A stretch of 64,000 nt of DNA from a virus. Lineage: Duplodnaviria > Caudoviricetes. How positions within the stretch are numbered: the stretch's first letter is position 1; each line of letters opens with the position of its first letter. Below, one piece after another: positions 1-64,000 of the stretch. The stretch spans positions 1-64,000 of the IMG/VR virus record IMGVR_UViG_3300020036_009452; one strand, written 5' to 3'. Under the pieces are notes generated by a model. It did no database searches. It had not been told where the DNA came from and saw only the letters and a list, made by a program, of their open reading frames with translations. The translations under genes were made by a program, and so were the position numbers.

Positions 1-14
1 GACTTGTAAAGAAA

Positions 15-73
15 ATCCCGCTAGCTAACCTACAGTTCTACTAAATAGTAGTCTGATGAGAGGCTGGCGGGAT
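15..73 (+). other. Long imperfect RNA hairpin upstream of the ribozyme
   Basis: ATCCCGCTAGC (15-25) pairs with GCTGGCGGGAT (63-73); inner hairpin CTACT-AAAT-AGTAG. Confidence 0.55.
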
Positions 74-87
74 ACTACCCATTGTAA

Positions 88-148
88 ACTCGTCTGAGCG
101 AGTATAAATAGATTTTTAAGCTTAGAGCGTCCAATTATTGGGGTAAAT
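88..148 (+). ncRNA. Pistol self-cleaving ribozyme
   Basis: P1 ACTCG/CGAGT; loop TCTGAG pseudoknots with CTTAGA (121-126); conserved TAAATAG, TTAAG and GCG; P2 ATTT/AAAT; P3 TCCAA/TTGGG; G143-U144 cleavage dinucleotide. Matches the known pistol consensus element by element. Confidence 0.9.
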
Positions 149-149
149 A

Positions 150-239
150 GAATAATAGTGGAGGGAATCTGGTGTAGAGCGCGGCGTATGTACGAACTAG
201 CACACCACTGTTATTCACATCCCAGTGCCTGAACGGGAT
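150..239 (+). promoter_or_regulatory. Structured 5' leader of the first CDS
   Basis: GAATAATAGTGG (150-161) pairs with CCACTGTTATTC (205-216); second hairpin ATCCC (219-223)/GGGAT (235-239). Confidence 0.5.
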
Positions 240-269
240 TCATAGAAGGCAATATTCAAAATTAATAAA

Positions 270-938
270 ATGACACACCTTAAGTTCAACGATGAACTCT
301 TATTAGTGGATGTAAAGAAAGAGGAAGATGATTACTTCCACTGCACAGTTTGGAAGCTCGATGCCAACGGCAATGCAGAACCAAATCCAGCTAGGGAGAT
401 CTACCAAAAAGACGTATTCAAACGCCTCCAAAGGGCATACCGCGTGCACACAGCAGGCACCTTTATGACCCTCAATGGAAATGTTGTTGTGTCTCCAGAG
501 TGGGAACGTTCGTGGTTTGCAACACCTACTGGTGAGTTTCTCCGGTTTTTGTCACATGATGAGCAGGAAAGGCTGCTGTGGGATTGTCCACAGCTTATTT
601 ATAAAGCCGATCGCCCAGAGTTTGAACTCCCTGTAATGTGGGAGCTTATTCACGAAACACCAGAAACACGATATTTTGTGAGATCTCGTAAACGAGGCAA
701 TCCTACATTCCTGAAACTGCCCATAATTGGAGCCGGTGAAGGGGACGCACTATACACCGTGATCGGAGCTAATGTTGCTCTAAACCATCCAGGCCCAGCC
801 TTTGAAAATTACTACGATCTAGTTCTTGACAAAATAGGTGTGATGATGAATTTCAACGAAATGATGGCTGAGATCCCAAATGATCTGGTAGCCTCATACA
901 TCGTAAACCAAAGACAAGAAGGTAAACAGTCCAAGTAG
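270..938 (+). CDS. Hypothetical protein (222 aa)
   Basis: ORF with AT-rich leader; TAG stop. Confidence 0.75.
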   Translation: MTHLKFNDELLLVDVKKEEDDYFHCTVWKLDANGNAEPNPAREIYQKDVFKRLQRAYRVHTAGTFMTLNGNVVVSPEWERSWFATPTGEFLRFLSHDEQERLLWDCPQLIYKADRPEFELPVMWELIHETPETRYFVRSRKRGNPTFLKLPIIGAGEGDALYTVIGANVALNHPGPAFENYYDLVLDKIGVMMNFNEMMAEIPNDLVASYIVNQRQEGKQSK

Positions 939-958
939 ATATCTCACCCATGATGATA

Positions 959-1016
959 GGCCGCAACTAGAGTAGAATAGCACGTAAAATGTTACTAACT
1001 ATTTGATGTTGCGGCC
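959..1016 (+). other. Intergenic stem-loop
   Basis: GGCCGCAAC (959-967)/GTTGCGGCC (1008-1016), perfect 9-bp stem enclosing further pairing. Confidence 0.55.
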
Positions 1017-1034
1017 ACCTTAAATTCTCCCAAA

Positions 1035-1226
1035 ATGAGTAAAAAAATTATTTTGATAAGCGTCCTCTTGCTTTTCGGACTTCTGTTAGAATTTATTGCT
1101 GACGACTTATGCGAAGAAGTGATGGGAAGAACACTGCCCATTTATATGAAGCTTCTATATACTGTTCAAGGGTTAATTCTTGCTCTTGCAATAGAGTTAT
1201 ATAGGAGCTGGCGAAAAGAACAATAA
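1035..1226 (+). CDS. Small membrane protein (63 aa)
   Basis: Two hydrophobic segments; AT-rich leader. Confidence 0.65.
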   Translation: MSKKIILISVLLLFGLLLEFIADDLCEEVMGRTLPIYMKLLYTVQGLILALAIELYRSWRKEQ

Positions 1227-1336
1227 TACTCACACGCAAGAGTAATAAGAAACTTCAACCATATTTTTTTGGTTTTAGGAGCAGACGTAATGTTAGCTCC
1301 TATTTTTCAATCTAAAAACTTTAATCCACACACAGA

Positions 1337-1579
1337 ATGAAAAAGCGTATCATTTTCCTATTTGCATTTACCCTGATCGTCCTTGCTTTCTGGCAATTTG
1401 ACGAGTATCAATATAGGCAAGAGCGTGATAACTCGGTTTATTTGGCGGTCGTCGCTAATAGACCAGACCACGAATTCAAAATCACCCTGTCAGCAGGATA
1501 CAAGCCGTGGGACCTTGTTCTAGAAAAATACCGAGGAAAGCCCACTTGGCTCCAAATACGGGAGATAATTGAAAAGTAA
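1337..1579 (+). CDS. Small membrane-anchored protein (80 aa)
   Basis: MKKR followed by a hydrophobic N-terminus; TCTAA leader. Confidence 0.65.
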   Translation: MKKRIIFLFAFTLIVLAFWQFDEYQYRQERDNSVYLAVVANRPDHEFKITLSAGYKPWDLVLEKYRGKPTWLQIREIIEK

Positions 1580-1600
1580 TTGTGATAGCGGTCATAGCAT

Positions 1601-1627
1601 GGGGTGCTGCCAAATTGGTGGTGCCCC
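1601..1627 (+). terminator. G.U-rich hairpin (terminator or processing site)
   Basis: GGGGTGCTGCC-AAATT-GGTGGTGCCCC, 11 bp with G.U pairs that work only on the + strand. Confidence 0.5.
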
Positions 1628-1668
1628 TTGACCATTTAAAATTATCTAGTTTCTAAAATTCAAAACGC

Positions 1669-2013
1669 ATGACTCTACAACAATTGGCAGCCGAGCTGCC
1701 ACCACTACCAGAACCAAGCCTCATTGGTCTTTTGGACTTGGCTTCAAGTCGCATAGACGAAGAGGGCCAAGTGAAACAGCCACAAACCATCATCAATGAA
1801 GCGCACCGTATTGTGCGTTATCAAAAATGGCTCAAACATCGGCTCGAAACCATGGCTTTGAATGCGGCCTGGAAAAAGCTGATGAACGAAAAACTCGACT
1901 CACGCACCCAGCGTAATTCCCGAACCAAGAAGGCCCGCTACAAGGGGCGTAAATCCACCGCGAAGAATCATGTGAAACACACTATGCAGTTTGTTGTTGC
2001 TCCTATGCTTTAG
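1669..2013 (+). CDS. Hypothetical protein with basic C-terminus (114 aa)
   Basis: ORF with TCTAA leader; TAG stop. Confidence 0.65.
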   Translation: MTLQQLAAELPPLPEPSLIGLLDLASSRIDEEGQVKQPQTIINEAHRIVRYQKWLKHRLETMALNAAWKKLMNEKLDSRTQRNSRTKKARYKGRKSTAKNHVKHTMQFVVAPML

Positions 2014-2164
2014 TTGCACACAACCGACTGCCCCGCCCGACATGCCTCTGATAACATATACACCGAGGGATTCAACCGGCGAACCAAAATTGATTGAAAG
2101 ACCGCAACTAACCAACTTCGTGAGGAGTTCTGGCAATGTATACGGCAATCCACTGGCACTTTAG
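1970..2164 (+). CDS. Putative small lipoprotein; TGA at codon 2 if started at ATG 1970
   Basis: ATG-TGA-AAC reads M(W)NTLCSLLLLLCFSCTQPTAPPDMP, a lipobox-like signal; an alternative TTG start lies a few codons later. Confidence 0.35.
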
Positions 2165-2314
2165 ATGAGAAAATATGCACCTGTTATGCAGCTGTGTATT
2201 ACACTTATCCAGAAAGGCCCTTATTTGACTTCTAAGCCACTTTCTAGTGGCAGTAGTCCTCTCCCACACCTAACCCATGAAATGCGCTCTAAGGCCCATT
2301 TTTATGCGTTTGGA

Positions 2315-2382
2315 GGCACTATGGCATTGGGCCAAACTCCCCCTGAACAGAGAATTAGTAGGTTCGACTCCTACTGGTGCCA
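2315..2382 (+). tRNA. tRNA-like element 1 (degenerate D and anticodon arms; possible GAA/Phe loop)
   Basis: Acceptor GGCACTA/TGGTGCC plus discriminator A; T-arm GTAGG-TTCGACT-CCTAC; anticodon stem TCCCC/GAGAA pairs only 3 of 5. Confidence 0.55.
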
Positions 2383-2432
2383 CTTGATGAAAAATTTAGT
2401 GACTAGGACTGATGAAATATTAGTTCTATTCT

Positions 2433-2509
2433 GATTCTGTAGCTCAATGGTAGAGCACCCAAGAACCGTTTGGCACGGGAGGTTGCAGGTTCGAGCCCTG
2501 TCAGAATCA
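2433..2509 (+). tRNA. tRNA-like element 2 (expanded, non-canonical anticodon arm; identity unclear)
   Basis: Acceptor GATTCTG/CAGAATC; D-arm GCTC-AATGGTA-GAGC; T-arm GCAGG-TTCGAGC-CCTGT; region between D-arm and variable loop is 22 nt rather than 17. Confidence 0.7.
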
Positions 2510-2535
2510 CATTTTCTAACTAAAACCATATAATT

Positions 2536-2919
2536 ATGGCCGCACAACTTCCATTTTTCTCAACGTGCCCCTTGATTCAAGCAGATATGACTGCTAAATA
2601 TCAGAAACGGGTCACCAATCGTCTCTCCAAAGGTAAAGACATCTCCCTTGTGGAGATCGTCAAAATCAAGGAAGCTCTCTTGACTGAGGCAAACAAGGCC
2701 ATGCAAGATCGAAATGATCGCAGGGCAAAAGCAATCACCCAACAAACCCGCCAGGCAGAATTGGCCGTCAAACGGCTGGCCGAAGCCCCATTCAAAGCTG
2801 AAAAACTCAAAGCTCGGGCTGAACGCAGAGCTGCAAATCGTGCAGCACGTGCTGCTATCAGCCTTGCAAAGAAATATCAAAAACAGTTCAAACATCAACA
2901 AACTCAAGTTGTACTATGA
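2536..2919 (+). CDS. Basic, Ala/Lys-rich helical protein (127 aa)
   Basis: TCTAA leader; ends TGA in an ATGA overlap with the next start. Confidence 0.75.
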   Translation: MAAQLPFFSTCPLIQADMTAKYQKRVTNRLSKGKDISLVEIVKIKEALLTEANKAMQDRNDRRAKAITQQTRQAELAVKRLAEAPFKAEKLKARAERRAANRAARAAISLAKKYQKQFKHQQTQVVL

Positions 2920-3407
2920 AAAGCTTACTCACATTTGCATTGATGTTTACTTTGTTAAATGTCACGATTTCACAGTCTCTCTCCTTCACAGTTGACGTAA
3001 AAATTACAGGTAGTGAGGCAAAAGAACTGGCAGCTATCCGCCAGCTGTATCGATTGCCTGTTGACCAACGCACTAATAATGCGATTGCTTACCCGGCTAA
3101 AATCGAAAACCCATTGTTCACTGTGAACACCGTGACCGGGGAAGTAGATTTGAAAATCTATAATCAGCAAATATCCGAACCCAAAGTTCTGGGGGAGGCT
3201 TACGATCGGGCTACTGGAACCCACAAGTTCTGGTATACCTATGGAACCTGCGAAGAACAGCCAGAATACGAAATACTGTTGTACGAACGACAAGGAGAAA
3301 CTTACATCTCGGTCACTCATTGTGGAGAAAAGACCCTAGTGATGGGGAACTTCTACCTAGCCAAAATATTTGATCCATGGCAACCGAGGCAGACGTATTC
3401 GCAGTAG
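2916..3407 (+). CDS. Putative secreted protein (163 aa)
   Basis: Signal-peptide-like MKSLLTFALMFTLLNVTISQS. Confidence 0.7.
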   Translation: MKSLLTFALMFTLLNVTISQSLSFTVDVKITGSEAKELAAIRQLYRLPVDQRTNNAIAYPAKIENPLFTVNTVTGEVDLKIYNQQISEPKVLGEAYDRATGTHKFWYTYGTCEEQPEYEILLYERQGETYISVTHCGEKTLVMGNFYLAKIFDPWQPRQTYSQ

Positions 3408-3622
3408 CTATCCTATTGATACTGTTTTTGCTCGGTGGGCTGTTGCCATATCATTTGTACCGGCGGAAAACACGACAGTACATGGAAAATACGATAGCTT
3501 CGGGGTCGAGAGCTCCGAAAGATCATTTTGAGAACCAAAAGAACAGGGGGAAGGTTTCCTTCCTCCTAATTCTAATTGGACTATTTGTGGGCTATGCCGT
3601 ATGGCGATTCTTCACTAACTAA
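3377..3622 (+). CDS. Small two-TM membrane protein (81 aa)
   Basis: Two hydrophobic stretches. Confidence 0.6.
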   Translation: MATEADVFAVAILLILFLLGGLLPYHLYRRKTRQYMENTIASGSRAPKDHFENQKNRGKVSFLLILIGLFVGYAVWRFFTN

Positions 3623-3631
3623 AAAAATCAC

Positions 3632-4465
3632 ATGCTTACAACAATTGCGATTATTTACGTCACTTGTTTGATTCTGGTCTTTCCTATAGCATTTGTCACA
3701 GACACACTAGTGATGGGGCCAGAGTTGACACCCATCAATCGTTTTACCCGGCTTAAGGATGCCTGGAAGAATACGGAAATCTTTAACGATACTATCGAAT
3801 CCTTTCAAGTTGGCAAACCACGTGAAATTTTCCTGTACTGGTTTGTATTGGGGCCTTTTACTCTCCTCATTTCAATTTTCGCACTATTTTGGGAGCTTTG
3901 TAAACCTCATAAGTATATTAAAGTCCCATATGTGATAAAGGAGTCCTTGGCATATCCCTATAAAGTCACAAAAAAAGGCATAACCCTTTGGGCACAAAAA
4001 CTGGAAATCAACCTCATCAACCTCAATTATGTCCGACTAATTGGTAATAAGGGGTATCTGGAGCGCGACATAAATATCTTTTGGATTCTTGAAGCCTGCA
4101 TAGAATATTACCCAGCGCCTAACATTGTAGCCTTCTGGAATAAATTGGTCCGCGTCCCTTTGGACGAAATGATCGGTTTATACTACACGAACCGAGTAGA
4201 AATTGTTGAACGCATGCCTGGTAATTTGCGCATGCATTTCTCCAACATGTTACGCTCTACCAAAACACGTGAAGGCGCCAAAATATCAGGCACCTTAGAT
4301 TATTACCTGCATTATGTTCAGCAGATCATTATAGATTACCCTGACGCAATGCATTGGAATCACCCGTATCTAAAGATCAAGTATGCCTTGATAAATGAAA
4401 AGACAAAGGTCATACAAAAAATCGAAGCTGCTTATGAAAAAGAAGAGCATAAAGGAAACAATTGA
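3632..4465 (+). CDS. Membrane-anchored hypothetical protein (277 aa)
   Basis: N-terminal hydrophobic segments; TGA stop. Confidence 0.7.
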   Translation: MLTTIAIIYVTCLILVFPIAFVTDTLVMGPELTPINRFTRLKDAWKNTEIFNDTIESFQVGKPREIFLYWFVLGPFTLLISIFALFWELCKPHKYIKVPYVIKESLAYPYKVTKKGITLWAQKLEINLINLNYVRLIGNKGYLERDINIFWILEACIEYYPAPNIVAFWNKLVRVPLDEMIGLYYTNRVEIVERMPGNLRMHFSNMLRSTKTREGAKISGTLDYYLHYVQQIIIDYPDAMHWNHPYLKIKYALINEKTKVIQKIEAAYEKEEHKGNN

Positions 4466-4793
4466 AGATGACGCCTATGTGTTGATAGGCTGCCACAGCA
4501 CTTTCACGGTTATTGGTGCACTTGTTTTACTCAAAACAATGGGTAATTCATCTGCCGTACTGATTTGGAATTCGATTCATTACTGGCTAGCTCATGAAGT
4601 ACTACCAGATTACGATCAATTGCAGCGAAAATTCTACGCTGCTGAGGGTAACCAGAATGACAAATTCTGGTGTTGGACTACAGACGACCGATTGATAGAA
4701 ACTAGTTGGTCTAATCCAAAGTCGTTTTATGCGCCAGATTATGATGCAGCAATTGACTATTCGGATAAGGTGCTGGGAATTGCTCCCAAATAG
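4395..4793 (+). CDS. Hypothetical protein (start uncertain)
   Basis: ORF track; TAG stop. Confidence 0.55.
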   Translation: MKRQRSYKKSKLLMKKKSIKETIEDDAYVLIGCHSTFTVIGALVLLKTMGNSSAVLIWNSIHYWLAHEVLPDYDQLQRKFYAAEGNQNDKFWCWTTDDRLIETSWSNPKSFYAPDYDAAIDYSDKVLGIAPK

Positions 4794-5194
4794 ACATACC
4801 AATCCCCTAGCCCATTAAAAGGCTAATTGTCGCTAGACCGTGTTTCATAATAAAGATTTGTTTGACTGGCAGTGCTATAAAACCCACTGTAGAAGGAGAA
4901 CTGCTTTATCGTAATGCAGCTGAACGACACGATTGGATACGTACTAGGAGAGTTTGATGACATTACAGTCAACCTCTTCTACAGATCACCAGAAATTTAT
5001 GTTCTTTATTTAGTTTTATTGGTATCGGAGAAAATCCCTATTACAGGGCAATCCGACTTCTAAGCCACCTCGTGTTAGATTATTCAAGTCTACTGCTTGG
5101 CTGATCCAGGAGTACTCTCTTCCTGGCCAATATACAAAGATACAAAATTTCTTGGCTCATTGCACAAAACACTTATCACTAACTTGACAAAGTA

Positions 5195-5641
5195 ATGCTC
5201 TTCTCCATATCATTCCTTCAAAGTTGGGCACAACAACAGGATTTTCCGCTCGTAAAAGAGGCAGAAAAGAATATAAAGTACAATCGATTTCGTCTTGTGC
5301 TCTCAGTCCTGTATGTTATTGCCCACCGCAAAGCCGCCAAAGACGTACGTGACGTCCTGAAAGAAACACGCAAAAACCTATTACCGGTGCCAAGCGCCAT
5401 GTCTGACTTCCTGGACTTCCTCACGGAATTTCATCAGGCCGTCTTCCGGGCGCCAGCACATCTATTTTTAACTTACGAAAGCCTTCTACCACAGGAGGCC
5501 GAACCACATTTTGTCACAGTCCTAACTGAATACATGATTTTCTCACAGCCTACAGGTAAAGATGACTATTTGTCGCTACTGTCGGCTTTGAAAGAACTGG
5601 CTCGGTTAGGAGCCATTAATTTCACACATGATACTGACTGA
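5195..5641 (+). CDS. Hypothetical protein (148 aa)
   Basis: ORF; TGA stop (readthrough would span the whole next gene). Confidence 0.65.
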   Translation: MLFSISFLQSWAQQQDFPLVKEAEKNIKYNRFRLVLSVLYVIAHRKAAKDVRDVLKETRKNLLPVPSAMSDFLDFLTEFHQAVFRAPAHLFLTYESLLPQEAEPHFVTVLTEYMIFSQPTGKDDYLSLLSALKELARLGAINFTHDTD

Positions 5642-5897
5642 GTTACATCAAGCCCTGCTGCTTGCCGGCGGCTTAATCTTAATGATGATCCTTCTCATCG
5701 CCTTCCGCCCAAAACGGAAACCCATAAACCTGCGCCACAAGGCCAAGGCCCAGGCAGAAACCAGACTCCAAGGAATCTTGGATTTGCCTGAATCTGAGGC
5801 TGTTGCGGCCTTGCGGGCGATCCGCGATACCTACCAGGAAAAACTGCGCCTCATCCAGTTAATGGAAAACGATGAGGCTTTCCAAAAAATACTTTAA
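5628..5897 (+). CDS. Small membrane protein (89 aa)
   Basis: N-terminal TM segment followed by a basic patch. Confidence 0.65.
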   Translation: MILTELHQALLLAGGLILMMILLIAFRPKRKPINLRHKAKAQAETRLQGILDLPESEAVAALRAIRDTYQEKLRLIQLMENDEAFQKIL

Positions 5898-5916
5898 TCG
5901 ACCCAGGGACAACAAG

Positions 5917-6002
5917 ACATCCATAAAGATGGGTGTTGGACATCTGATTCTACACTAGTATCCCAACGCTCAATCCCTGTAAGAGGGGGGTAGTAAGTGT
6001 AG
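5917..6002 (+). promoter_or_regulatory. Structured leader of the GH73 gene with alternative pairings
   Basis: ACATCCAT/ATGGGTGT hairpin competes with GGGTGTTGG (5931-39)/CCAACGCTC (5963-71); CTACACT/AGTGTAG stem (5950-6002). Confidence 0.4.
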
Positions 6003-6027
6003 AGTTTTCATTCTAAATTATTCAAAC

Positions 6028-6801
6028 ATGAGTCAAATTAAAATTATTCCCGCGGCGCCAACAAAATCGCCACCCACTTTTTTTCAAGCTTTCACGGCCG
6101 CATTTGCGATTTTCTCAAAAGTACGCGGCTTTGAACGGACATCGCTCTACGCGCTGACCTTCATCTTGCTGGCCTCCTTTATGGGAGTGGGTGCCTGGGT
6201 GGGCACTTTTACAGCCCACCCCAAAACCATAATCATCCCGGTGGAAAAGATCAAGGGGGTGGAAAAAATCCCTGAGGTCATGGCAGCCCCAGTGGAATCC
6301 ATTTTCATTGCCCCGCCCGACGATGTAAACCCGCCAGATCCAGCACCTGCAATCAATGTTGACAAGTTCAACCCAAAGGCGTATATTGCCAAATTCAAAA
6401 ATGCAGCTCAACAAGGGATGCGGAAATATGGTGTGCCGGCGAGCATCAGTCTTGCACAAGGGCTGATTGAAAGCCGTGCGGGTACCAGCAAACTGGCCGT
6501 GAGCAACAACAACCACTTTGGGATGAAGTGTTTTGCGCGAAATTGTCGTAAAGGTCACTGTACCAATCATACCGACGATACTCACAAGGATTTCTTCCTA
6601 AAATTTAAAAATGCCTCCCTAAGCTGGGAAGCCCATGGGAAGCTAATCTCGACTGGTAGGTATGCCAAGCTCAAGAAATATGGCCGCGATTACAGGCGAT
6701 GGGCAACAGGCTTAAAAGCCGCAGGATATGCCACAGACCCTACCTATGCCCAAAAACTCATCGGCGTTATTGAGCGATACAAACTATATCAATACGACTG
6801 A
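6028..6801 (+). CDS. Membrane-anchored GH73 glucosaminidase/muramidase (FlgJ-like)
   Basis: PASISLAQGLIES, NNHFGMKC, GYATDPTYAQKLIGVIERYKLYQYD motifs; N-terminal TM segment; TGA stop at the family-typical C-terminus. Confidence 0.9.
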   Translation: MSQIKIIPAAPTKSPPTFFQAFTAAFAIFSKVRGFERTSLYALTFILLASFMGVGAWVGTFTAHPKTIIIPVEKIKGVEKIPEVMAAPVESIFIAPPDDVNPPDPAPAINVDKFNPKAYIAKFKNAAQQGMRKYGVPASISLAQGLIESRAGTSKLAVSNNNHFGMKCFARNCRKGHCTNHTDDTHKDFFLKFKNASLSWEAHGKLISTGRYAKLKKYGRDYRRWATGLKAAGYATDPTYAQKLIGVIERYKLYQYD

Positions 6802-6819
6802 ATGATTAGCCCACCCCCT

Positions 6820-6861
6820 AGTGTGATGGTCGCAGGGGAGGTTCGACTCCTCCCCACACTT
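6820..6861 (+). ncRNA. tRNA-like minihelix (acceptor stem plus T-arm only)
   Basis: AGTGTG/CACACT stem; T-arm GGAGG-TTCGACT-CCTCC; only about 11 nt where the D and anticodon arms would be. Confidence 0.45.
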
Positions 6862-6875
6862 CTAACAAATTAAAT

Positions 6876-7226
6876 ATGCGTAAACTAATTCTCTTTTTTC
6901 TCCTGCCGACAGTTTGCTTGGCTCAAGGAATCCGAAATCCCTCATACAACCGCTACGAGATGCGTGTTGTGTGTAAGGGGAAAATCATCCGAGAAGGTAT
7001 ATTGGAAAGTGGTGCTTGTATAGAAAACATGCAAGTATTCCAAGAGGTAGAGGTTTTCTACCGTGTGATTTTTAAGCGGTGTGACACCGAAAATCCTGAG
7101 AAACCAATCATGGAGACCCTGCCAATTGTTAAAAACACTCCATTACCGAATGGCTGGAAAATGGTCAAGGTTCCGCCTAACGTTATTCAAAATTTACCAT
7201 TACAAATCTGCCCGCAGAGGGTATAA
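6876..7226 (+). CDS. Putative secreted protein (116 aa)
   Basis: Signal peptide MRKLILFFLLPTVCLAQ. Confidence 0.65.
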   Translation: MRKLILFFLLPTVCLAQGIRNPSYNRYEMRVVCKGKIIREGILESGACIENMQVFQEVEVFYRVIFKRCDTENPEKPIMETLPIVKNTPLPNGWKMVKVPPNVIQNLPLQICPQRV

Positions 7227-7239
7227 AAAAAAACTTAAC

Positions 7240-8265
7240 ATGGATTTACACGACATCCGCATAGAATTGAATAAACAATTCTTCCAAGCGGAGAAACCAA
7301 TTGACGCAATCCTTCTTGCAATTCATCGCAAGAAAAATTGTATTCTCTACGGCCCACCAGGGCACGCCAAAAGTCAACTCGTCGAAACAGCCCTCAAGTT
7401 GTTGTTGGGGGAGGAAGCCTTTTATGAAGAGGTGTACCAGACAAACGGTGGACTGGAAATGCCCACCAGTCCATTTATTGGTACTCTGGACATCAAAAAG
7501 TACCAGGAAACCGGCCAGGAGGTGTACAACTTAGAGGATACGGTGTACTTGGCCAATAGATTTGCCATCATCGAGGAAGGGCTGGACATGCCAGCGTATG
7601 CGATGGAAACCATGAAACAACCACTCATGAGCGGCACAATTTGTGTGAATGGCAAATGTCATAAAAACAGATTGGAAACCTTATTCATCTGTACCAACCA
7701 TAATCCTATGGCGTGGGCAGGTGATTCGGATTCATTGAAAGCCGCTATTGCACGATTCCCGCACCGCGCTCCGGTAATGTGGGCAGACTATTCCCTTAAT
7801 ACCTGGGTGAATTTCTTCCAATTCAAAGGCACCCCTGATGACTACGCTGCACAGATTGTGGCTAAATGCCATTCCATGGGGTACAAAGTGTCGCCCCGAA
7901 CAGCCGTACAGTTCCAAGAGCTCCTCGCTATGGGAGGGGTTGCTGCTCTAGAATACTATGACGATATGGCAGAACATCCCGCGGTGTACAAGGCTCTTGT
8001 GGCTCTTTCGGCATCCATTCCTTTTTTCAAGGAACTCGCCGCTATTGAAAGCTTGGTTGAGTCAGCAGCAACTGCAGTTGGACGTAACGATCCAGCAGCT
8101 GCAGGGAAAATCGGCATCGCCAAAAAAGCCATAAAGGATCTTAAGGGTATTCCAAAAGATACGTCATTCACTGACAGGCTGCGTACTGCCACCCTGGCCC
8201 TTTCGACTCTGACTGAGGCTGTGGAACAAGCGGCTGCAAAGCAAGTTAACTCACCAGTATTATGA
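7240..8265 (+). CDS. MoxR/RavA-like AAA+ ATPase
   Basis: Walker A LYGPPGHAKS, Walker B AIIEEG; start moved to ATG 7240 after an A-rich leader; ATGA overlap with the VWA gene. Confidence 0.85.
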   Translation: MDLHDIRIELNKQFFQAEKPIDAILLAIHRKKNCILYGPPGHAKSQLVETALKLLLGEEAFYEEVYQTNGGLEMPTSPFIGTLDIKKYQETGQEVYNLEDTVYLANRFAIIEEGLDMPAYAMETMKQPLMSGTICVNGKCHKNRLETLFICTNHNPMAWAGDSDSLKAAIARFPHRAPVMWADYSLNTWVNFFQFKGTPDDYAAQIVAKCHSMGYKVSPRTAVQFQELLAMGGVAALEYYDDMAEHPAVYKALVALSASIPFFKELAAIESLVESAATAVGRNDPAAAGKIGIAKKAIKDLKGIPKDTSFTDRLRTATLALSTLTEAVEQAAAKQVNSPVL

Positions 8266-9428
8266 ATTTAGCTTACGAAATCGATCCTCAACTGGGTGCA
8301 GAAATCCATACGGATCTCAGAAAGGCCGGGTTCTACGATAACACCGCTATACAAAACTGTATAGCTATGGCAACGCAGTTAACCAAGTCTAATTCACCAG
8401 CTACCATCATTAAAGAACTAGCGCCTGCAAAGTATGAAGACGCAAATTTTGCAATGGATTTACTTGAAGTTGCATCTGAATTACCAAGTGCCACTGTCCC
8501 AACGTTAGCCAAAGCCCTTGCTAAAGCTTACTTGGTACAACAGCTGAATGAACAGGCTGGAAGGAAGGGGCTTGGGAAAGAAGAATTGAAGGAATTATTG
8601 GAAGAAGAGCTTGAAAAAGCGGAAGCCACACGCTCAAAGGGCTCAGGAACAAAGAAGGACCCAAGATACCTAGATGAGTATTTTCGGGGAGAGCCGCTTG
8701 CCCCAGATTGGGATGAGTTAAAGCGGGGGGATTTGCCTGAAATGGTTATCAAGAGCAGTACGTTGGCCTTCGCTAACAAGAAGGTAACAACAGAAACAGT
8801 TGAAGGTAAGCCAAAGACAAGCTTAGTCATCAGGAGAATCCGATCAATTCGCGAAATCCAAAATGTAACTTTGAAAGAAAGGTTACTACCACCTGATGTT
8901 TTTGCCCTCAAACTTGCACAGAAGCAACTGCTTGGGGCCTTTCCTAAAAAGGCTGTGTCCATTCCCAAGACCTTAATTGTGCTTTTAGACGACTCAGGTT
9001 CTATGAACCAAGACTACAAAATAGCTTTAATTATAAAGATATTTGAAGCCTTATTCAAACCGATCCTTAAGGGAGATTTGCGACTGTTAGTTGCTCCATT
9101 TGAACACAATTTAGGAGCCTTCATGGAAATTAGTAATTCTGTACAAATTGAGAACTTCAAAAACACCATCACTGCTGGTTCAGGTGGCTGGACGTATCTC
9201 AATCACTTTCTACCTGGATTAATTGAGAATATAAAGAAAGGCGAGGTGAACAAACTTCCTGTCCCCACAGATACTCAGGTGTTGATAATAAACGACGGTG
9301 AGGATAACCCAAACATGACGCAATCTGATATTCCGGTTAACGCCATTGCACTTGCCCACCATCCCAACACGGAATTACGAGAGCTTTGCCGCAACAGTGG
9401 CGGAGAGTATATGCTTTTAAGACAATGA
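8262..9428 (+). CDS. VWA-domain protein (ViaA-like partner of MoxR)
   Basis: MIDAS LIVLLDDSGSM and LIINDGE; adjacent to the MoxR ATPase. Confidence 0.85.
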   Translation: MNLAYEIDPQLGAEIHTDLRKAGFYDNTAIQNCIAMATQLTKSNSPATIIKELAPAKYEDANFAMDLLEVASELPSATVPTLAKALAKAYLVQQLNEQAGRKGLGKEELKELLEEELEKAEATRSKGSGTKKDPRYLDEYFRGEPLAPDWDELKRGDLPEMVIKSSTLAFANKKVTTETVEGKPKTSLVIRRIRSIREIQNVTLKERLLPPDVFALKLAQKQLLGAFPKKAVSIPKTLIVLLDDSGSMNQDYKIALIIKIFEALFKPILKGDLRLLVAPFEHNLGAFMEISNSVQIENFKNTITAGSGGWTYLNHFLPGLIENIKKGEVNKLPVPTDTQVLIINDGEDNPNMTQSDIPVNAIALAHHPNTELRELCRNSGGEYMLLRQ

Positions 9429-9446
9429 TTGAGGACAATGATTGAG
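9421..9446 (+). repeat. Perfect 13-nt tandem duplication GACAATGATTGAG x2
   Basis: Copies at 9421-9433 and 9434-9446 span the VWA stop and the next start. Confidence 0.85.
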
Positions 9447-10493
9447 TTACACTCCTATATGAACGCGTTTGACGATAACAAGTTGCGTCCTGGATTTAGA
9501 GATCCCGAGGGTAATTTGTGGGTATTTTCCCACACAAAACCCAGAGACTTCTTCATATTAGTGCCCACAGAGAAGGTCGTCAGTAAACATTTCAAACCCA
9601 AAACATCAACAATTTATCTGACACTGGCTGATAACCAGTGTGCCCATCGCTACAATAATGTAAGTGGCGGTGATTTCAACTATGATTTTTTAACGTTAAA
9701 ACAACATATTTGTACAATGAAAAAAACACTCAATATCACCCATGAACAACTGGGCCTGTCGGCTCAAGCGAATCTCCAAGAAGTTTTGGAAATTCTCGGA
9801 CGGGAAAAGGCTGGAACCTTGAAGGAAGAGGACAAGGCTTACACCACCCTAGAGAAGTGGCCGGCAATCTCGCAGGCCTATGGTGACCTGCTCCTTAAGG
9901 AGGCGATCTCTGCCTTGCCTTTCGAGGGCGAGGTTGGCATCACAGACGACAACCGGAAAGATCTCAATGAAGCGGTAGCCATGCTCCAAACGGAGCCAAC
10001 CTCGGAATTGGCAATTTCAGTCCTCACTGAGGCTGGATTAACCTATGTCGTATCCCCGCCAGCTTCCGAGGAAGCTCTCCAAAGCGTTGTAACAAACACC
10101 GCTGCTGACGATGCCGCTGTGGAAGATGCCCCCCAGACCGAGGCGCCTGCAACCGATACACCAGCATTGGATGTGCCCCCTGCTGCTGGGGAACCAGAAC
10201 CATCTACCCAGCCGGAGGAATCATCTCCCCTCCCAGAAGCCCCCAAATCAACTGTGCCGGCGATTGCAAGCACCGGAGTCCAAAAAGGCTTAGCCGCGAC
10301 TGTGGCCGCAAACAAAGAGGTACTTAACAATGTGCGCACGATTCGCGAACAGGTCGGCAAACTTGCTGACACCGTAAACACGTTGACCGACTCCGCCATC
10401 GAAGCCGCAATGGCAGCAAGCGAAGCCGCTCAAGCCAGCCTCGAAGCCGCCAACACAGCCGTCCCAGTTGAGGACGCCATCATCGCCGAGTAA
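9438..10493 (+). CDS. Hypothetical protein with acidic Pro/Ala-rich linker and C-terminal coiled coil
   Basis: ORF from ATG 9438; possible internal start at 9717 with an AT-rich leader. Confidence 0.7.
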   Translation: MIELHSYMNAFDDNKLRPGFRDPEGNLWVFSHTKPRDFFILVPTEKVVSKHFKPKTSTIYLTLADNQCAHRYNNVSGGDFNYDFLTLKQHICTMKKTLNITHEQLGLSAQANLQEVLEILGREKAGTLKEEDKAYTTLEKWPAISQAYGDLLLKEAISALPFEGEVGITDDNRKDLNEAVAMLQTEPTSELAISVLTEAGLTYVVSPPASEEALQSVVTNTAADDAAVEDAPQTEAPATDTPALDVPPAAGEPEPSTQPEESSPLPEAPKSTVPAIASTGVQKGLAATVAANKEVLNNVRTIREQVGKLADTVNTLTDSAIEAAMAASEAAQASLEAANTAVPVEDAIIAE

Positions 10494-57098: not shown

Positions 57099-58976
57099 TT
57101 ATTGTGTTAAAAATTCTGCTTCGTAATTTGGTTTGGTCTTGCTTGGGAATAATTTCTTAACGGTCTCGTCATCAAACAACAACCTCTCTAAATCGTAAGG
57201 TTCAGCAATGCGTCCATTGATTGTTAATGGATCATCAAAGTTTACTTCCTTACCGTTATTGCGAGCTCCATAGAATATCCTAATAGGCTCCCCATTTTCA
57301 TAATGTGTAACCCCGACAAGTCCCACTTTTTTCCCTGTATTCTTATCGTTGATTTCAAAGTAATCACCCTGTTGTCTTCCATCTTTCATGTATCCAAAAG
57401 CTTTAGATACAATATCCTGATTAGCCCTAGCCATATTGGTTTGGGGACTAGCAACAAAATAAACTTTACCCTCTTTGTCAGGGTCTGGAAAAACAGTAGC
57501 GCCTGATGGGGCCTGCCCAGTAAAACCAAGTGATTTACCAATAGCGGGTACTCGAGTCTTCAATGGATTTTTTGGGTCTTTTAATTTCTTGGCCAAGTCA
57601 ATTTTATCGTCTAACTTTTCGATTTCAGTAACCTGCCCACCTCCATCCATCTCATACACACGGTATGATCCATTCATTAATCCAGGCAATAATCTATTGG
57701 ATTCCTCTTGCTGAGAACCAGTGGTTTTAAATGGATAATAATGAACTTTAGAATAGTTAGTGTCTACTCTTTTAGCATTATACATGTCGATTATCTGACC
57801 GTCTGTAGCTTTTGGATTACTTGCCTTGATAGAACGCAACATCTCTTTATTTACATTCACATCCTTGGTGCTCATAAGATATGCATATGTAGCTGGGAAA
57901 GATGATGAACGCGCATCTAAAATCGACGTGCCTGTTGTAGCTGTTAATGTTTTAGGAAGCTCTGGGTATGTGGGGGTTAGGGATCTGCCAACAGTAAGCT
58001 CAGCAGGAATCAAATCTCCTGCATCACTATCCAATTGATTCTTATAATCAATACGTTGTAAGGCATTGCGCTGCTCGATAGCCTTAAGAGCTTTATTGTG
58101 CGCAAACCTAAGATTCTCCTTAGCCTTCCAGTCCTCTTTGTAATCAAATATTTGACTGTTCTCAAGCATCCCACTGCGTGCAGGAATTACCTGTGAAGCA
58201 TACTGCTGGATAACATCTTGTGTTAATTTCTCTGGGTCTTGACCGCTGAGCTGCCCTAAGCTACTGATGTAGTTCTGATACTGAATATCGTTATTAAGTT
58301 TTCCAGCTCACCCGGCTGCAGCTTCATTTGGGTCAATCATTGTTTGTTTGACCTTCTTGAACTCATGGTAACCGTCTAGTGTTTTACCACCAGTAGGTAC
58401 AGAGATCTCTACAGTCTTTGGCTTTACCTTTCCCATGTACTCCTCAAATTCCTTATGGACATCATATGTCTTAGGAAGATTGAGTGGAGCAACCGAGGAA
58501 TAGCTGCGTGAGTTAGGATCAAACGTTGTGGGAGGGAGATTCTGATAATGCTTCTCAAGGAGATTCAATTGCAAAGAATCAATCTCTCCTTTACCTAAGC
58601 GTTCTCTTTCTCTTTTCAAGGAGTCTTCAACTATTGCACGATTACGTTCTAATGCACCAGCTTCTCCATTTGGAGAGAACAGATTATTTACGTCACTTCG
58701 TAACTTATACAATTCTTTTGTTGCTTGCGAGTAGTCACCACTATACTTATTAACAACGTCATCAACTTGCTTTCTCAAACCTTGTTCAAGTTCATTAGCT
58801 CTAGCTCGGTCTTGCGGCAAAGCATTGATGTACTTAGTTTTAATTTCTTCACTGGCTGCAAAGTTAACATTATATTGTTTCTGCGCAGCTTCTAGTGCCC
58901 TCCCAATAAACTCTACTGGGGGGACATATAAACTTCCTTTATAAGGAGTTCCTCTATAATATCTATTGATTGCCAT
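57099..58976 (-). CDS. Internal virion (cargo) protein, 625 aa (1 TGA=Trp)
   Basis: TGA 58308-10 followed by 46 open codons in frame with ORF 57099-58169. Confidence 0.7.
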
Positions 58977-61764
58977 TGGCTGCTGCGTAAATTCTTTGGT
59001 AAACTTCGGGATAAAGAGATTTCATTATGTTCAATTGTGCGTAGGTCTGTTTCCGCTGATTTAAAGCCTGGCCAAAGTTACCCAGTGAGTTGAAGGCTAC
59101 ATCAGTAGCTTGCTGATAAGCAGCTCTATTTTGAGCGTTTATATCATTAGTATAAACTGTCTGAGCAACATTATACCTACGTTGGCTAGCTACCCGATTC
59201 TCGTATTCAGTTAACGCGGCTTTATTCATCTGGTTGTACTGGCTTAGCGTTTGATTGTCTGCGTTCAGTTTAGAAGCTAACATACTATTAGCATAAGCTC
59301 TACGAGAATTAATTGAACCTGAGTTCAGGCCGCTTAGCGCCCCGTCATAGTTTCTCTGGTTTTGGTATAGAGCCTGGTTTGGATCGTAAGTATTCTTAGT
59401 GATGGCTGTTTCATCATAATATGGTTTCTCCTTTTCAGGACCACCCGATAGCTGAGCAAACTTAGAAAGCACTTCAACGCCCTGCAAGACATCGCCCATA
59501 ATCAAACCTCTTTTGTTCTGCCTGTCCTGCGCGTTAGGATTAGCCGTGTTAGCTACACCAGGGATTGTTGGCGTGGTAGCCGTAGTCCTCTTTATCTGTG
59601 GAGTGACCTGCCCGACACCAACGCTGGTAGATACCTGCCGTTGCAGCATATTCAGAGGCTCAACTGGAGACATAGTATACTTATCAGTGTTTTGATTTAC
59701 AAGTAGATCTAGGTAAGCATCTTTACCTGAGTAGGGCCCTGGGTAAGTTCCATTAGGTTGGGCTGCGGTTGGGGCTGCTGGATTAGGTTTACCTTGAGGC
59801 CCTCGTAGGCGAGGTTGAATTGTAGTCTGTGGAGCAGGCGCGGTGGCTCTAGGTTTCATAGCTAGATCCATGCCTGTTAACATATCATCTAATGTATTGT
59901 ATGGAGCATTATTAGCTTGCTCAGGAAAATACTGCTGTTTATGTGCAGCAATGTTATTTTCATTAGTTTGTTTCCACGCTGCGCCGCGTTGGTAGTCTAC
60001 TGGATAGTAAGCTCCGAAAGCATCACGACCTAAGAATTTGTCAGTTGAAGGATCATAATATATTCCTCGATTGATTCCCATTTGACTATTCTTTCCTTCT
60101 ACTAACATATAGACAGGATCGCCCATTTGACCACCTGCTGCAAAACCATTGCCACCTCCTCGCAGTCCCGCAGCACTTGCTTGGTTTTCTTGAGCACCGG
60201 CTAGGGAAGCCATGGCCCTTTGATTTATAGCAATTGTATTCTGGGATATTGGGTCGTATGGAGAATGCTTAAGACGAAGTTGGGCTTTTCCAGAGGCAGC
60301 CTCGATACGTTGAGCCAGCCTAGCATATGACTGCCCTGTTTTCTCATCAGCCAATCGATTGGAATAAACGAAGTTATCTTTAACTACTTCATTATGGTCT
60401 AACCGTACATTCTTAGTTGGATAGTAATTTCCATCAACTTGGTTTGGACTACCTTGAATTTGAACGGCGGAGTCAGAAAGTGCTATATCCCCTCCCATAG
60501 CACGTTCCCGGAAACGCTCTCTTGATTTACTATGTGACGCTGCTTCACGTTGTTTAGGTAATGCTACAGTCATGTTACCAAGTAATCCATTTATAACCAT
60601 TGAAGGTTGAATAACTGGCTGGGTTGTATTAGACACTTTTGGATTCGTGATGGTGGGCATATAAATAGGACCACCATTATTATAAGCACCAGGAGTTGCA
60701 GACATTACCATTTTCCGACGTTGCTGTTCGTCCCTATGTTTCTTTATTAATTCAGAAACAATACCAACACCTCCAGACGAAAGAACATTACCCCAATCTA
60801 CTTTATAGGGATCATCATTTGGATTAGCTTGATAGTTTCCAATACTTAAGAGTTGTTGTGCTGCATTTCCAGCTAACCCCAAAAGGGCCCCACCAGTGAA
60901 ATAATTTTTTGGTCCTGGAATACCTTTAGTTTTTGTTTTCATGTCTTCTTCATAAATTCTACCATATAATTCTAATGGTTTTCCTATTCCTCCACTATTA
61001 GCTAAATCTCATTTATCGTAGTAGCTAACATAGTTACCTTTCGCATCAACTCCTCTTGAAAGGGTATAGGTTCCCATTGTACCCATGGTTGGGGTTTCTT
61101 CGTAAGTTTCAAAAGGCTGAGTAAAATCAAAAGCCAACGTGGCTTTATCCCCCACATTATTTGGGGCTAATTCAAACATACTTTTCTTTACGGCTTCCGG
61201 GACATTCGTAAACTCATAATATAGTTTATTGGGATCTCCTTTTGTTGGACTTTGTGATGCTATTTTTAATGTATTATTTTGTTGTGGTTTCCCCAGATAC
61301 ATAGACCAAACATCTAGTCTATTATCCCGTCCTACGCGGTCTATATTACGATCGTCCGCAACTTTGTTCTCTACAACAGCCTCATAAAAACGAGATACTC
61401 CATTTTTATAAGTGTATGGACTAAAGTTCTTATTTAAGCGAGATAAAATTTCTTCTGGTCAAAACTGGCCTTGACGTCTTTCTCAATTAGTTCCGGTTTT
61501 ATCTAGTTGTGTTTGCAGTTCCCCATGTCCTACAGCCGAACGCATATTTGGAGCGCTATCTGTAATTGTAGGTTGGTAAACTCCATTCTGATTATACCTA
61601 TTTATGGCGGCTTCTGTCAAAGGTCCGTACACCCCATCTATCTTCCCTGTATATAAATTTCTACTTTTTAGATCGGCCTGTATAAGTTTTAATTGGGCAC
61701 GGTCTAACTTTGCGATTATACTTGGATCAATAGAAGGCCCTCCAGAAAGTTTTTCAGGTTTCAT
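58963..61764 (-). CDS. Virion protein with N-terminal peptidoglycan-binding domain, 933 aa (3 TGA=Trp)
   Basis: LIQADLKSRNLYTGKIDGVYGPLTEAAI (PG_binding_1-like); TGA at 61483, 61459, 61009 join three track ORFs in frame; YYDK(W)DL. Confidence 0.75.
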
Positions 61765-63998
61765 TATCTATTTCTGTTTTGTATTTGGGTACCTACGAGA
61801 TCTAATTTTATATTGTAATCTTCGCTAGGAAAATAAAAGAGTCTAACACCTAGATAATAATCTTTTAGGCGAGCACTTTCATAGAAAGGTTTATCGGGAT
61901 TGATATTTGAATTATTTACAGTCTTGTCTATATAACTATAGGGCACACTGGCTTTTGATTCTCAAGATGAATCCCATATTGGTGCATTAGGACTAATTGA
62001 TAAATCTCTTAGATTATTAATCCGCCACTGTTTATCAGTTTTTCTGACTAGGGATAAAGTATTAGTTATATCCGTAGCAAAGTCTTCAACTCGTACTAGG
62101 GGTAGTTCCCCAGAAATCTGGTTGCTATTATAGAACGTAGCCGCTGTGTAAGTGCTGTTCACTTGAGCGATCTCTTTTGTAGTAGCATCAAGAGCTGTTG
62201 CAAAAGCTGAATAACCTATCCCAGTGGTAGTCTTAATTTCCTTTGGGTTCTGAGAAGCAATAAAGTCTACTATATGGGGAAACTTTACTCCGTAATAAGT
62301 TTGGAAATTTGAGTTTCCATGCTTATAGATTTCAGAGTATCCGTTTTGGCTAAAGAGATTATTTGAATTAGCAAATAGAAAAGAAGGCAAGTAAGAGTGG
62401 TATGAGATCCAGTTCTGAGTTAGAAAAGAATATGACATAGTAAAAGACTTATTCTCAAAGAATGTTACGTTGTCAAAGTCTATACTTTGGACTGCTCCTG
62501 TTGGGGGATTGTAATAAAATGAGTGCCCGTTAAAGAACACTTTATCAGGAGTAACATAATAGAGAGGTTGGTCTGTTTCAGTTGGATTGTACACGAACTT
62601 TGTTTCCCACTGGGGTAACAACTTAAAGTCTCTCTTGTGAACTATAAGACGTTTAAATCTAGGATCATAGCTTGCTTTGTACCCAACACCTATTGGTGAA
62701 GTGTGCGAGATGTATGGAAACTTGTAATTCGTTAATCGCTCATACTGAGCTAGAAAGGATAATTCTCCGTTCTCTTGCCAGAAGTTACGTGTTCCTTTTA
62801 GGGATAAATCATTTAGTTCTCCTCCTAATAAGAAAGGATGCCCCGCGAATGAGTCTACATAGAAAGTACCGTACTCTGTCGATAAGCGTGATGTGAAGTG
62901 TGGCTGACCAGCAAAAGCTAGTTGAGTATTCTTTAACTCTATAGGTGGCACGCTAAAGATAGCACCAGTTCCTAAATACACATTTGCTAAGTCAGTCTGT
63001 AGCGTCTGTGTTTGGGTAGGAAGTAGGAAGATAGAACGAGTAGTAGTTACATACAGCTTATTGAAATTCATAAACATATCTGTAATTGGTCCTGATGTTC
63101 CTCCAATTGCATCTGTATAGTTGCTAGTTAGGATAATCCTATTGGCGTCCTCTAGAGTTTCATTGTTATCTGGTAGTGAGTGATAGACCGTGTGTGGCTT
63201 ATCTTCATTACACATATTACAATAAGGATACGCAAACTGTATTGGATAGTCATATGTAAGCCCGTCTAAGAAAGAAAAAGACTTATTGTATAAGTATCTC
63301 TCTGGATAGTATGCGAAAGCTTTGTCCCCACTTTTGTATTGCCGAATCTTCATGTACTTCCTAAGGTGCGTATGATTGTCCGCAAAAGTAGTTGGATTCA
63401 TATGCTGGAAGTATAGAAACTCTCGATTGGTCTTAGACCCGTGTCTAAAGTTATAATTCAATAACGTATCCTGAGTTGGGAAGGACAGGAAGTAACTATC
63501 ATAATCCATAGTTATAGAGCCTGTGTCTCCAGCTTCGGGTACGCCTGTTTGACGATAGTTGAAGTCAACCATTGATAAGCGACTAACTGCAGTGTCCCCA
63601 CCGTAAACAGTATATGTAGTACTAGGACTTCCTTCCCTAGATAAGCAGTTGCCAAAGCGTTTAAACTTTATCTCATACAGATTGCTAAATGTGTCTAAGT
63701 ACTGGTGGATCGCCCCGTAATACATCTTCCCGCGCCAAGCTCCTCCTGCAGTAGTAATGTCTGCTGACCCAGAGTTTAGTCTAATAATCTGATAGTTATT
63801 GTTTATACTGTTATTAGTAAACGTAGTATTTGATAATGGCTCATAGACTTCTACACCATCCTGTGCGCCGGCGTAAGATTTCTGTAGGAACAGATCCGTG
63901 CGCATGGTGTGGATAAGATTATTTTGTGCTGGGAGATTATACCTAGAGAAGTACCGAAACTGTGTGGTAGCATCTAGCGTGCCTATCCAATCTTGTTC
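61764..63998 (-). CDS. Tail/stabilisation (P22 gp10-like) protein, 5'-truncated by the window edge (1 TGA=Trp)
   Basis: Open to the window end; YDPRFKRL and TMSYS...WISYHSYLP segments; TGA 61962-64 joins it to ORF 61764-61946. Confidence 0.65.
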
Positions 63999-64000
63999 AG

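Follow-up and report, generated by a model that had tools for sequence, protein, structure and literature searches.

TGA is used as a stop codon in some gene blocks and as a tryptophan codon in others in a crAss-like phage from activated sludge and wastewater

The stretch analysed here (hereafter the window) comprises bases 1-64000 of the 89,427-base virus record IMGVR_UViG_3300020036_009452, and by its gene content it is part of a crAss-like phage (Crassvirales). Codon counts and comparison with relatives show that TGA is a terminator in three accessory gene blocks of this phage (B1, B3 and B7) and a tryptophan codon in the replication block (B2), the tail-region block (B5) and the TerL gene. 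The giant and major virion genes avoid TGA, as sense codon and as stop alike. In addition, the alignments show that the choice of TGA or TGG at tryptophan positions is kept by selection.

Meaning of TGA in the gene blocks

Block counts were made with a curated gene list on a 101,424-base composite of the full genome, and the count for B2 includes one sense TGA that was added after the block tally. As listed in Table 1, TGA makes up 24 of the 70 tryptophan codons in B2 versus 0 of 135 in B1, B3 and B7 together (Fisher p = 3e-13), and no internal TGA was found across the 8,667 codons of the latter three blocks. Meanwhile, 14 of the 60 genes in B1, B3 and B7 end in TGA versus 0 of the 47 genes in B2 and B4-B6 (p = 2e-4); no gene in B2 has a clear TGA stop. 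The original prediction, that TGA is a stop in some blocks and tryptophan in others, is thus borne out by significant counts and by a pattern kept in the relatives. It had listed about 27 in-frame TGAs; they do exist, and the number in the window is 29 (24 in 16304-32807 and 5 in 57099-64000). As a share of the tryptophan codons, TGA accounts for 34% in the replication block, 0% in the giant genes and 4% in the virion block, with none in the major capsid protein (MCP) and portal genes. The plus strand is coding up to 36.8 kb and the minus strand from 36.85 kb onward, so both switches in the meaning of TGA at 16302/16304 and 32807/32972 lie within the plus-strand block. The G+C content differs slightly between blocks.

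Table 1. Gene blocks and individual features in window coordinates. Internal TGA/TGG counts refer to whole blocks. TGA columns are written as this phage/relative/relative (w, TGA; W, TGG; -, gap). aa, amino acids.
Feature	Position	Strand	Content	Sense TGAs and columns
B1	-1.4 to 16.3 kb (window 1..16302)	+	accessory/early-type block; 31 genes; TGA/TGG 0/72; stops 12 TGA, 11 TAA, 8 TAG	
Non-canonical tRNA-like gene	2433..2510	+	only tRNA call in the genome; ARAGORN "Gly(ACC)"; A at position 33	
B2	16304-32807	+	replication/recombination block; 22 genes; TGA/TGG 24/46; stops 16 TAA, 6 TAG	
Membrane-anchored 203-aa protein	16657..17268	+	SxHxxGxAxD and HxH motifs	16873, 17074 (both w/w/w)
DNA polymerase A with 3'-5' exonuclease (PolA)	17505..19397	+	DNA_pol_A 1.7e-66 and DNA_pol_A_exo1 1.5e-25 across TGAs	17598 (w/w/-), 19080 (w/W/W), 19386 (w/w/w)
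SF2 helicase	21201..22388	+	ResIII, Helicase_C	21258 (w/W/W), 21378 (w/w/w), 21972 (w/W/w)
Conserved 186-aa open reading frame	24512..25072	+	overlaps the reading frame 24238-24744	24593 (w/W/Y), 24809 (w/w/w)
DnaB-like helicase	25072..26070	+	DnaB_C 7e-16	25204 (w/w/w)
AAA_24 ATPase	26072..26731	+		26183 (w/-/W), 26402 (w/w/W)
Toprim primase	27716..28678	+	Toprim_2	27863 (w/w/w), 28265 (w/w/W)
Holliday-junction resolvase-like gene	30462..30920	+	phrog_190 6e-6	30492, 30711, 30810 (all w/w/w)
PDDEXK-like nuclease	30817..31857	+		31180, 31777
B3, standard-code island	32972-36778	+	5 genes, Band_7/SPFH gene and others; TGA/TGG 0/25; one TGA stop; flanked by terminator-like hairpins	
B4, three giant virion-type genes	36853-57094	-	1509, 1151 and 4087 aa, at the place expected in crAss-like phages; TGA/TGG 0/46 in 6747 codons; stops all TAA	none
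B5, tail region	57099-65987	-	3 genes; TGA/TGG 5/16; no TGA stop	
625-aa protein	57099..58976	-		58310
933-aa protein	58963..61764	-		61485, 61461, 61011
1407-aa gene, 3' part	61764..64000 (to 65987)	-		61964 (probably sense)
B6, virion and packaging	66-89.2 kb		19 genes; TGA/TGG 3/70; no TGA stop	two in TerL
B7, small genes upstream of GroEL	outside the record		24 genes; TGA/TGG 0/38; one TGA stop	

Between 16.3 and 32.8 kb, reading TGA as sense joins fragments into full-length genes, and Pfam domains span the TGAs in PolA, the SF2 helicase, the DnaB-like helicase, the AAA_24 ATPase and the Toprim primase. Four motifs in which a TGA had been predicted to take the place of a family-typical tryptophan were all found, namely PILNQ-w-KEV in the helicase (21378), DFDLR-w-KLFK in the resolvase (30711), SPH-w-SK in PolA (19386) and MKK-w-GGN in the primase (28265). 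In a PDB alignment of PolA, the TGA sites lay outside the aligned part. The 203-aa protein is a possible M15-type lysin, with a weak Peptidase_M15_2 match in Pfam (E = 0.12), no match in a PDB search and an AlphaFold model whose low quality (mean pLDDT 54) does not allow a fold search. Where the conserved 186-aa reading frame overlaps its upstream neighbour (24512-24744), substitutions fall at third positions of the downstream frame (24512-25072). It should be further pointed out that this region holds a cascade of long overlapping reading frames (23828-24364, 24238-24744 and 24512-25072), also kept in relatives, which may reflect programmed frameshifting or true overlapping genes.

On the minus strand, TGA-free and TGA-bearing genes are mixed. 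The predicted block map proved real and conserved in relatives except in its treatment of 36.9-57.1 kb as a separate TGA-free block. Because 0 of 25 late genes end in TGA (versus 12 of 31 in B1), and the TerL and tail genes on the same strand carry sense TGAs, the giant genes are better read as part of the regime in which TGA would mean tryptophan. At the TGA frequency of B2, the probability that they would lack TGA is 4e-9. Crass-like phages are expected to encode giant virion proteins, one of them bearing an RNA polymerase; the 1509- and 1151-aa giants gave no PHROG match. For the 625-aa protein, many full-length homologs (620-650 aa) align over residues 1-621 and hence across TGA 58310, whose column holds mostly F and also A, W, Y, I, L, M and V. 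Similarly, the 933-aa protein has a 978-aa homolog (P0015) that covers its three TGA sites in one chain, two of them with W, and the part past the last TGA is conserved. TGA 61964 is probably a sense codon as well, because the sense reading ends in a TAA that overlaps the next start at 61764, whereas the stop reading leaves a gap of 198 nt. Full-length homologs also cross the TGAs of TerL. In the TerL genes of seven relatives, TGAs were observed at conserved tryptophan columns in several, and the portal, MCP and neighbouring virion genes were almost TGA-free.

The TGA stops of B1 within the window lie at 2432, 2917, 4463, 5639, 6799, 8263, 9426, 11182, 11595, 14289 and 15640. Five TGA stops are part of ATGA stop/start overlaps, at 2916, 8262, 11181 and 14288 in B1 and at TGA stop 35722 in B3. 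Opposite the TGA ends of B1 and B3, the relatives have TAA, TAG or the end of the protein, and never TGG. For example, gene 13617-14291 stops with TGA here and in relative L013 but with TAA in relative L015; the AAA gene 12223-13563 has TAG here, TAA in L013 and TGA in L015; gene 15181-15642 has TGA here and TAA in both relatives; and gene 15796-16302 has TAA here and TGA in its L013 ortholog. In relative L019, the ortholog of 34011-34316 ends in TGA within an ATGA overlap. Homologs extending past the early-gene TGAs, which would have spoken for a uniform code, were not seen, as the sequence past these TGAs is unconserved in the relatives. Every TGA-ended reading frame has a TAA or TAG downstream. 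Some of the read-through tails span just 2, 2 and 7 codons, and others, of 95, 110 and 355 codons, reach into the following gene or become fused to it. Read-through past 9426 would join two genes whose counterparts in relative L021 are not in the same frame.

B1 and B7, which consist mostly of small genes, run in opposite directions from a shared region at the left genome end, an arrangement that fits an early role. Two small genes at that end, L010:129-620 (-) and L010:842-1054 (+), are divergent and have in common a leader and first codons, TTTTAAAATTCTAAA.TCATGGGAATCACAAGCGAACA; they may mark a divergent early control region. B1 also contains two glucosaminidase-domain (lysin-like) genes, which follow the standard code with a conserved TGA stop. 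A TTCTAAA leader motif before several B1 starts was not block-specific. Terminator-like hairpins of B3 were found at 32912-32927, 33967-33998 and 34726-34755. As side observations in the standard-code block, a Pistol self-cleaving ribozyme was detected at 88-148 (+) just upstream of gene 270-938, the first of the window (Rfam RF02679, 63.3 bits versus a gathering threshold of 34.5), and at 7240-9428 the gene of a MoxR-type AAA ATPase (bpMoxR, 2.8e-6) overlaps by ATGA with a downstream gene whose product has weak VWA matches, a layout that resembles a MoxR-VWA pair.

Genome, relatives and selection on TGA positions

The 89,427-base record covers part of a 102,154-base metagenome contig, to which it is identical across the whole overlap. 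Between this contig and a second one of 101,675 bases, obtained from another sample, there are 4 mismatches and a 718-bp insertion. This insertion, present in one of the two near-identical contigs, carries an HNH endonuclease gene (L012:9005-9523) and looks like a mobile homing element. The long contigs extend the record by about 2.3 kb to the left of window base 1 and by about 10 kb at its other end. The ends of both overlap, which suggests a circular or permuted genome of about 102 kb (about 102.2 kb), of which about 0.7 kb is not covered. Identical short contigs, covering small shares only, were found in one activated-sludge run and one wastewater run, and no RNA run was listed as containing the phage.

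The crAss-type MCP (phrog_11589, 6e-60; PF23898 Crass_capsid in the precomputed Pfam annotation of the source), portal (phrog_6547, 9e-108) and TerL (phrog_6681, 3.5e-101) are present in conserved order, and this order is syntenic in the relatives. A full-length GroEL-type chaperonin gene (phrog_5725, 7e-132; Cpn60_TCP1) at L004:10561-12165 (-), genome 87561-89165, lies directly upstream of TerL and is present in every relative fetched. In addition, TATCTTTG motifs occur shortly before two starts (genome 81858-82886 and 94818-95189, both -). We take them to be the Bacteroidetes-type TAnnTTTG -7 element, a weak hint at a Bacteroidota host.

A DNA similarity search against 50,697 phage records gave no match, and a PolA scan of IMG/VR found relatives at 27-28% identity only. 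An anchor protein encoded in B2 (19398-20495) led to relatives on long contigs, in which it is 59% and 48% identical. Of these contigs, some 26 kb and 41 kb were compared, and their gene order is the same as here; relative sequences are labelled L013, L015, L019 and L021 (and L023, L026 and L027). Protein identity among the relatives is 55-93% in B2 and 25-56% in B1. The B1/B2 boundary falls between the orthologs of 15796-16302 and 16304-16600 in all three genomes. Among further features of the relatives, group I introns were seen, of which one lies in the AAA_24 gene and another interrupts the capsid gene (L019:7031-7359; L026:10674-10930), as were large in-frame insertions, probably inteins, in TerL, which thereby reaches 1083 and 1426 aa versus 748 (L026:3363-6614; L027:768-5048).

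Opposite the B2 TGAs, the 172 alignment cells of the relatives hold TGA in 90 cases, TGG in 36, a gap in 21 and another codon in 25, including one Gly and one Cys. Almost every replication gene has at least one TGA common to all three genomes. When the conserved-tryptophan columns of B2 were compared across the three genomes, 12 were all-TGA, 23 all-TGG and 14 mixed, against random expectations of 2.9, 11.2 and 34.9. Thus 71% of these columns are homogeneous versus 29% expected (chi2 = 54, p = 1.5e-12). In the same alignments, the Lys (AAA/AAG), Glu (GAA/GAG) and Gln (CAA/CAG) columns were 31-34% homogeneous versus 26-27% expected, which is near random. Since synonymous A/G sites are saturated and yet the choice between TGA and TGG is held, the alignments show the TGA positions to be under selection.

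The sequence around the sense TGAs is also biased. A purine follows 27 of 31 sense TGAs versus 24 of 46 TGG codons in B2 (p = 0.0015), and C follows just 2 of the 31. A purine after UGA is a context that favours suppressor tRNAs over release factors, and C after UGA is the leakiest stop context.

Decoding states and rival explanations

We consider it fairly probable, judging from these data, that decoding takes place in two states, with standard-code genes translated first and a state in which UGA is read as tryptophan coming afterwards, in line with the model already published for such phages. The infected cell would pass from efficient UGA termination to efficient reading of UGA as tryptophan. 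Accessory genes would be made in the first state, and polymerase, helicases, primase, resolvase, terminase and tail proteins would be completed only in the second. The TGAs would then form a translational lock on the replication and packaging genes, and the high-copy virion genes would be TGA-free because even modest termination is costly there. Genes with three TGAs need efficient tryptophan insertion, and TGA stops are distributed as 14 of 60 versus 0 of 47; two decoding states are therefore favoured over one leaky state. If UGA terminated well during translation of the replication and late genes, some of these 47 genes should end in TGA. Conversely, if UGA were read through well during translation of B1, B3 and B7, their TGA ends should have been replaced. 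The proposed switch during infection is read from stop-codon usage, and the idea that it serves as a timer is plausible.

Several observations weigh against a switch of this kind. No decoding machinery was found, neither a tRNA with UCA anticodon over 101.4 of about 102.2 kb (ARAGORN, permissive run included, and Rfam) nor a release factor or tryptophanyl-tRNA synthetase (TrpRS) in the 89-kb record, from which PF00472, PF03462, PF00579 and PF00383 (release-factor, class-I W/Y synthetase and cytidine-deaminase families) are absent. The gap between B1 and B2 is 1 nt (16302/16304) and leaves no room for a promoter, and no terminator-like hairpin was found in 13600-17276, the nearest upstream being 13571-13600. 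Hence genes with stop TGAs (14289, 15640) and genes with sense TGAs (16343, 16873) may share one mRNA; the stops at 14289 and 15640 would be harmless in either state because their read-through tails have just 2 and 7 codons. The two glucosaminidase-domain genes stand in B1, though late expression is expected of such genes. The base at +4 does not separate stop TGAs from sense TGAs. Finally, TGA 24239 in B2 is ambiguous, as it is part of an ATGA overlap although similarity to the L013 ortholog extends beyond it. A sigma-70 promoter scan performed at chance level (31 found versus 30.7 expected, and 29 versus 35.4).

As for the agent of the proposed switch, two speculative candidates are at hand. 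One is the non-canonical tRNA-like gene at 2433-2510, which scores 53.6 bits in the Rfam tRNA model and whose anticodon arm has an interior of 16 nt instead of 11. The other is neutralisation of host release factor 2 (RF2) with decoding by host tRNA-Trp, possibly aided by a phage transfer-messenger RNA (tmRNA). Such a tmRNA is encoded beyond the record end, at L008:6072-6333 (- strand in window orientation) and also at L012:7860-8121, among the small genes upstream of the GroEL-like gene; it was detected by Rfam (76 bits) and by ARAGORN, with an unusually long predicted tag. According to one study, unassigned stop codons in RF1-deleted E. coli are resolved by near-cognate reading and tmRNA rescue (PMC6207430). 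A link between the tmRNA and UGA reprogramming is conceivable, as speculation. The fragments of the relatives carry ordinary tRNAs (Met, Arg and Leu) and no suppressor. Two further tRNA-like sequences were rejected for want of a convincing UCA anticodon: L008:295-359 in an intergenic gap (29 bits, D-arm-less, with a poor acceptor stem), and L023:326-432 of a relative, with about 36 extra nt. It is possible, though doubtful, that UGA is turned into a tryptophan codon altogether without a conventional suppressor tRNA, by disabled RF2 plus host tRNA-Trp or by the odd tRNA, with tmRNA clearing stalled ribosomes, and that the conserved TGAs lock replication and packaging rather than lysis and virion genes.

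The absence of decoding machinery just described would also suit a constant leaky decoding without any switch, in which UGA is always read partly as tryptophan, through host tRNA-Trp or a weak suppressor, and partly as stop, so that TGAs throttle low-copy enzymes and end most accessory chains. The abutting of B1 and B2 agrees with such leakiness, as do the absence of TGA from high-copy virion and giant genes, its presence in low-copy enzymes, TerL and tail genes, and its conserved positions, which attenuators would show as well. Nevertheless, several essential genes have three TGAs, so that their yield would be the cube of the read-through efficiency. Natural UGA read-through amounts to a few per cent, and at that level three-TGA genes would yield almost nothing. 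Leaky decoding also gives no reason why TGA stops are confined to B1, B3 and B7, and the leakiest context, C, follows only 2 of the 31 sense TGAs; we thus regard it as unlikely. A historical mosaic without present role, with the replication module derived from a lineage in which TGA means tryptophan and the rest from standard-code phages, could explain why B2 proteins are better conserved than B1 proteins and why G+C content differs slightly between blocks. However, TGA and TGG are each held at particular sites despite the saturation of other synonymous A/G sites, sense TGAs occur on the other strand too, in TerL and the tail genes, and the genes must be translated anyway, which demands a decoding mechanism. 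The layout is common to relatives down to 48% protein identity and is therefore old and maintained, so that a mere relic of history appears improbable.

Two other explanations have far less weight. Under a uniform code 4, UGA would never terminate in the host, or in the infected cell at any stage, and the TGA stops of B1 and B3 would be tryptophan codons near the C-termini; the TAA or TAG downstream of each TGA-ended frame and the tails of 2, 2 and 7 codons would allow this. But it is very improbable in view of the 135 TGG codons without one internal TGA in B1, B3 and B7, the TGA ends that match TAA, TAG or protein ends and never TGG, the unconserved tails (of up to 355 codons, three of them running into or fusing with the next gene) and the five ATGA overlaps. 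The TAnnTTTG motifs upstream of two genes, as a weak hint at a standard-code host, point in the same direction. An artefact or decay, for which the sense TGAs would be errors for TGG, marks of pseudogenes, or codons for selenocysteine or glycine, can practically be dismissed. The original prediction had itself named sequencing errors as the danger; the sequence is identical in several independent assemblies, contigs of a further run cover TGA 16873 and 17598 unchanged, and the TGA sites are conserved in relatives with 48-59% protein identity. Pseudogenes were rejected because the frames are open and conserved past each TGA and 12 TGA columns are common to three divergent genomes. Selenocysteine and glycine (table 25) were rejected as well, since the aligned residues are tryptophan or aromatic, with Cys and Gly once each among the 172 cells.

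Comparison with known systems and significance

Block-wise opal recoding in crAss-like phages has been described before (Yutin et al. 2021, PMC7886860; Mgcod, Pfennig et al., 10.1101/2022.06.29.495998). The phage analysed here resembles these published dual-coded phages in that part of the genome reads TGA as tryptophan and part follows the standard code, TGA aligns with TGA or TGG, TGA stands inside the polymerase gene, and a suppressor tRNA often goes undetected; Mgcod found one in just 3 of 17 code 11+4 genomes (10.1101/2022.06.29.495998). On the other hand, recoding in the published phages lies "mostly in late phage genes" with replication and transcription genes unrecoded, whereas here it is densest in the replication module. 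In the published phages the change of code goes along with the change of coding strand, whereas the switches at 16303 and about 32.9 kb fall within one strand here. Moreover, the major virion genes are TGA-free in this phage, unlike in the published cases.

The zeta crAss-like phage Lera (PMC12386605) shares with it the interruption of TerL and helicase genes by TGA as tryptophan, where homologs have Trp. But Lera comes from the gut and has 26 tRNAs, Sup-TCA and Sup-CTA among them, while no suppressor was detected here in 101.4 kb. Its recoded genes are mostly structural, and its lysins and holin are recoded, whereas the glucosaminidase-type lysin genes here keep the standard code. The Agate and Jade phages, for which a "lysis timer" was proposed (Borges et al., 10.1101/2021.08.26.457843), would follow the same logic, with standard-code genes first and suppression-dependent genes later. 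In that study, high alternative-code use goes with the structural and lysis regions "in all cases", whereas the lock would act here on the genes for replication and packaging. Recoded replication genes are described there too: in Lak phages most of them are recoded, and in some clades they are so "variably" (10.1101/2021.08.26.457843). Jade carries tRNA-Sup, TrpRS and RF1, none of which was detected here. Compared with the table 4 bacteria Mycoplasma and Spiroplasma, which read TGA as tryptophan as here and never as stop, this phage has 14 genes that end in TGA.

The layout had been predicted to be unusual, which is only partly right. Block-wise dual coding in crAss-like phages, missing suppressors and TGA in polymerase, helicase and TerL genes are already published. 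What is unusual is the concentration in the replication module, the same-strand switches, the hairpin-bounded B3 island and the absence of detectable code-change machinery, including a suppressor tRNA. The quantitative demonstration of selection on TGA positions is a further point of difference.

These findings extend opal-recoded crAss-like phages from the gut to activated sludge and wastewater. They also have a practical side, as dual-coded phages are mis-annotated by standard pipelines: the source gene calls fragment PolA, the helicases, TerL and the tail proteins. With fixed, selected positions in replication and packaging rather than lysis and capsid genes, the phage offers a clean natural case for studying the purpose of stop-codon recoding. 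If real, the proposed lock on replication and packaging would run opposite to the published "lysis timer", and should a host be found, a new way of reprogramming UGA decoding could come to light.

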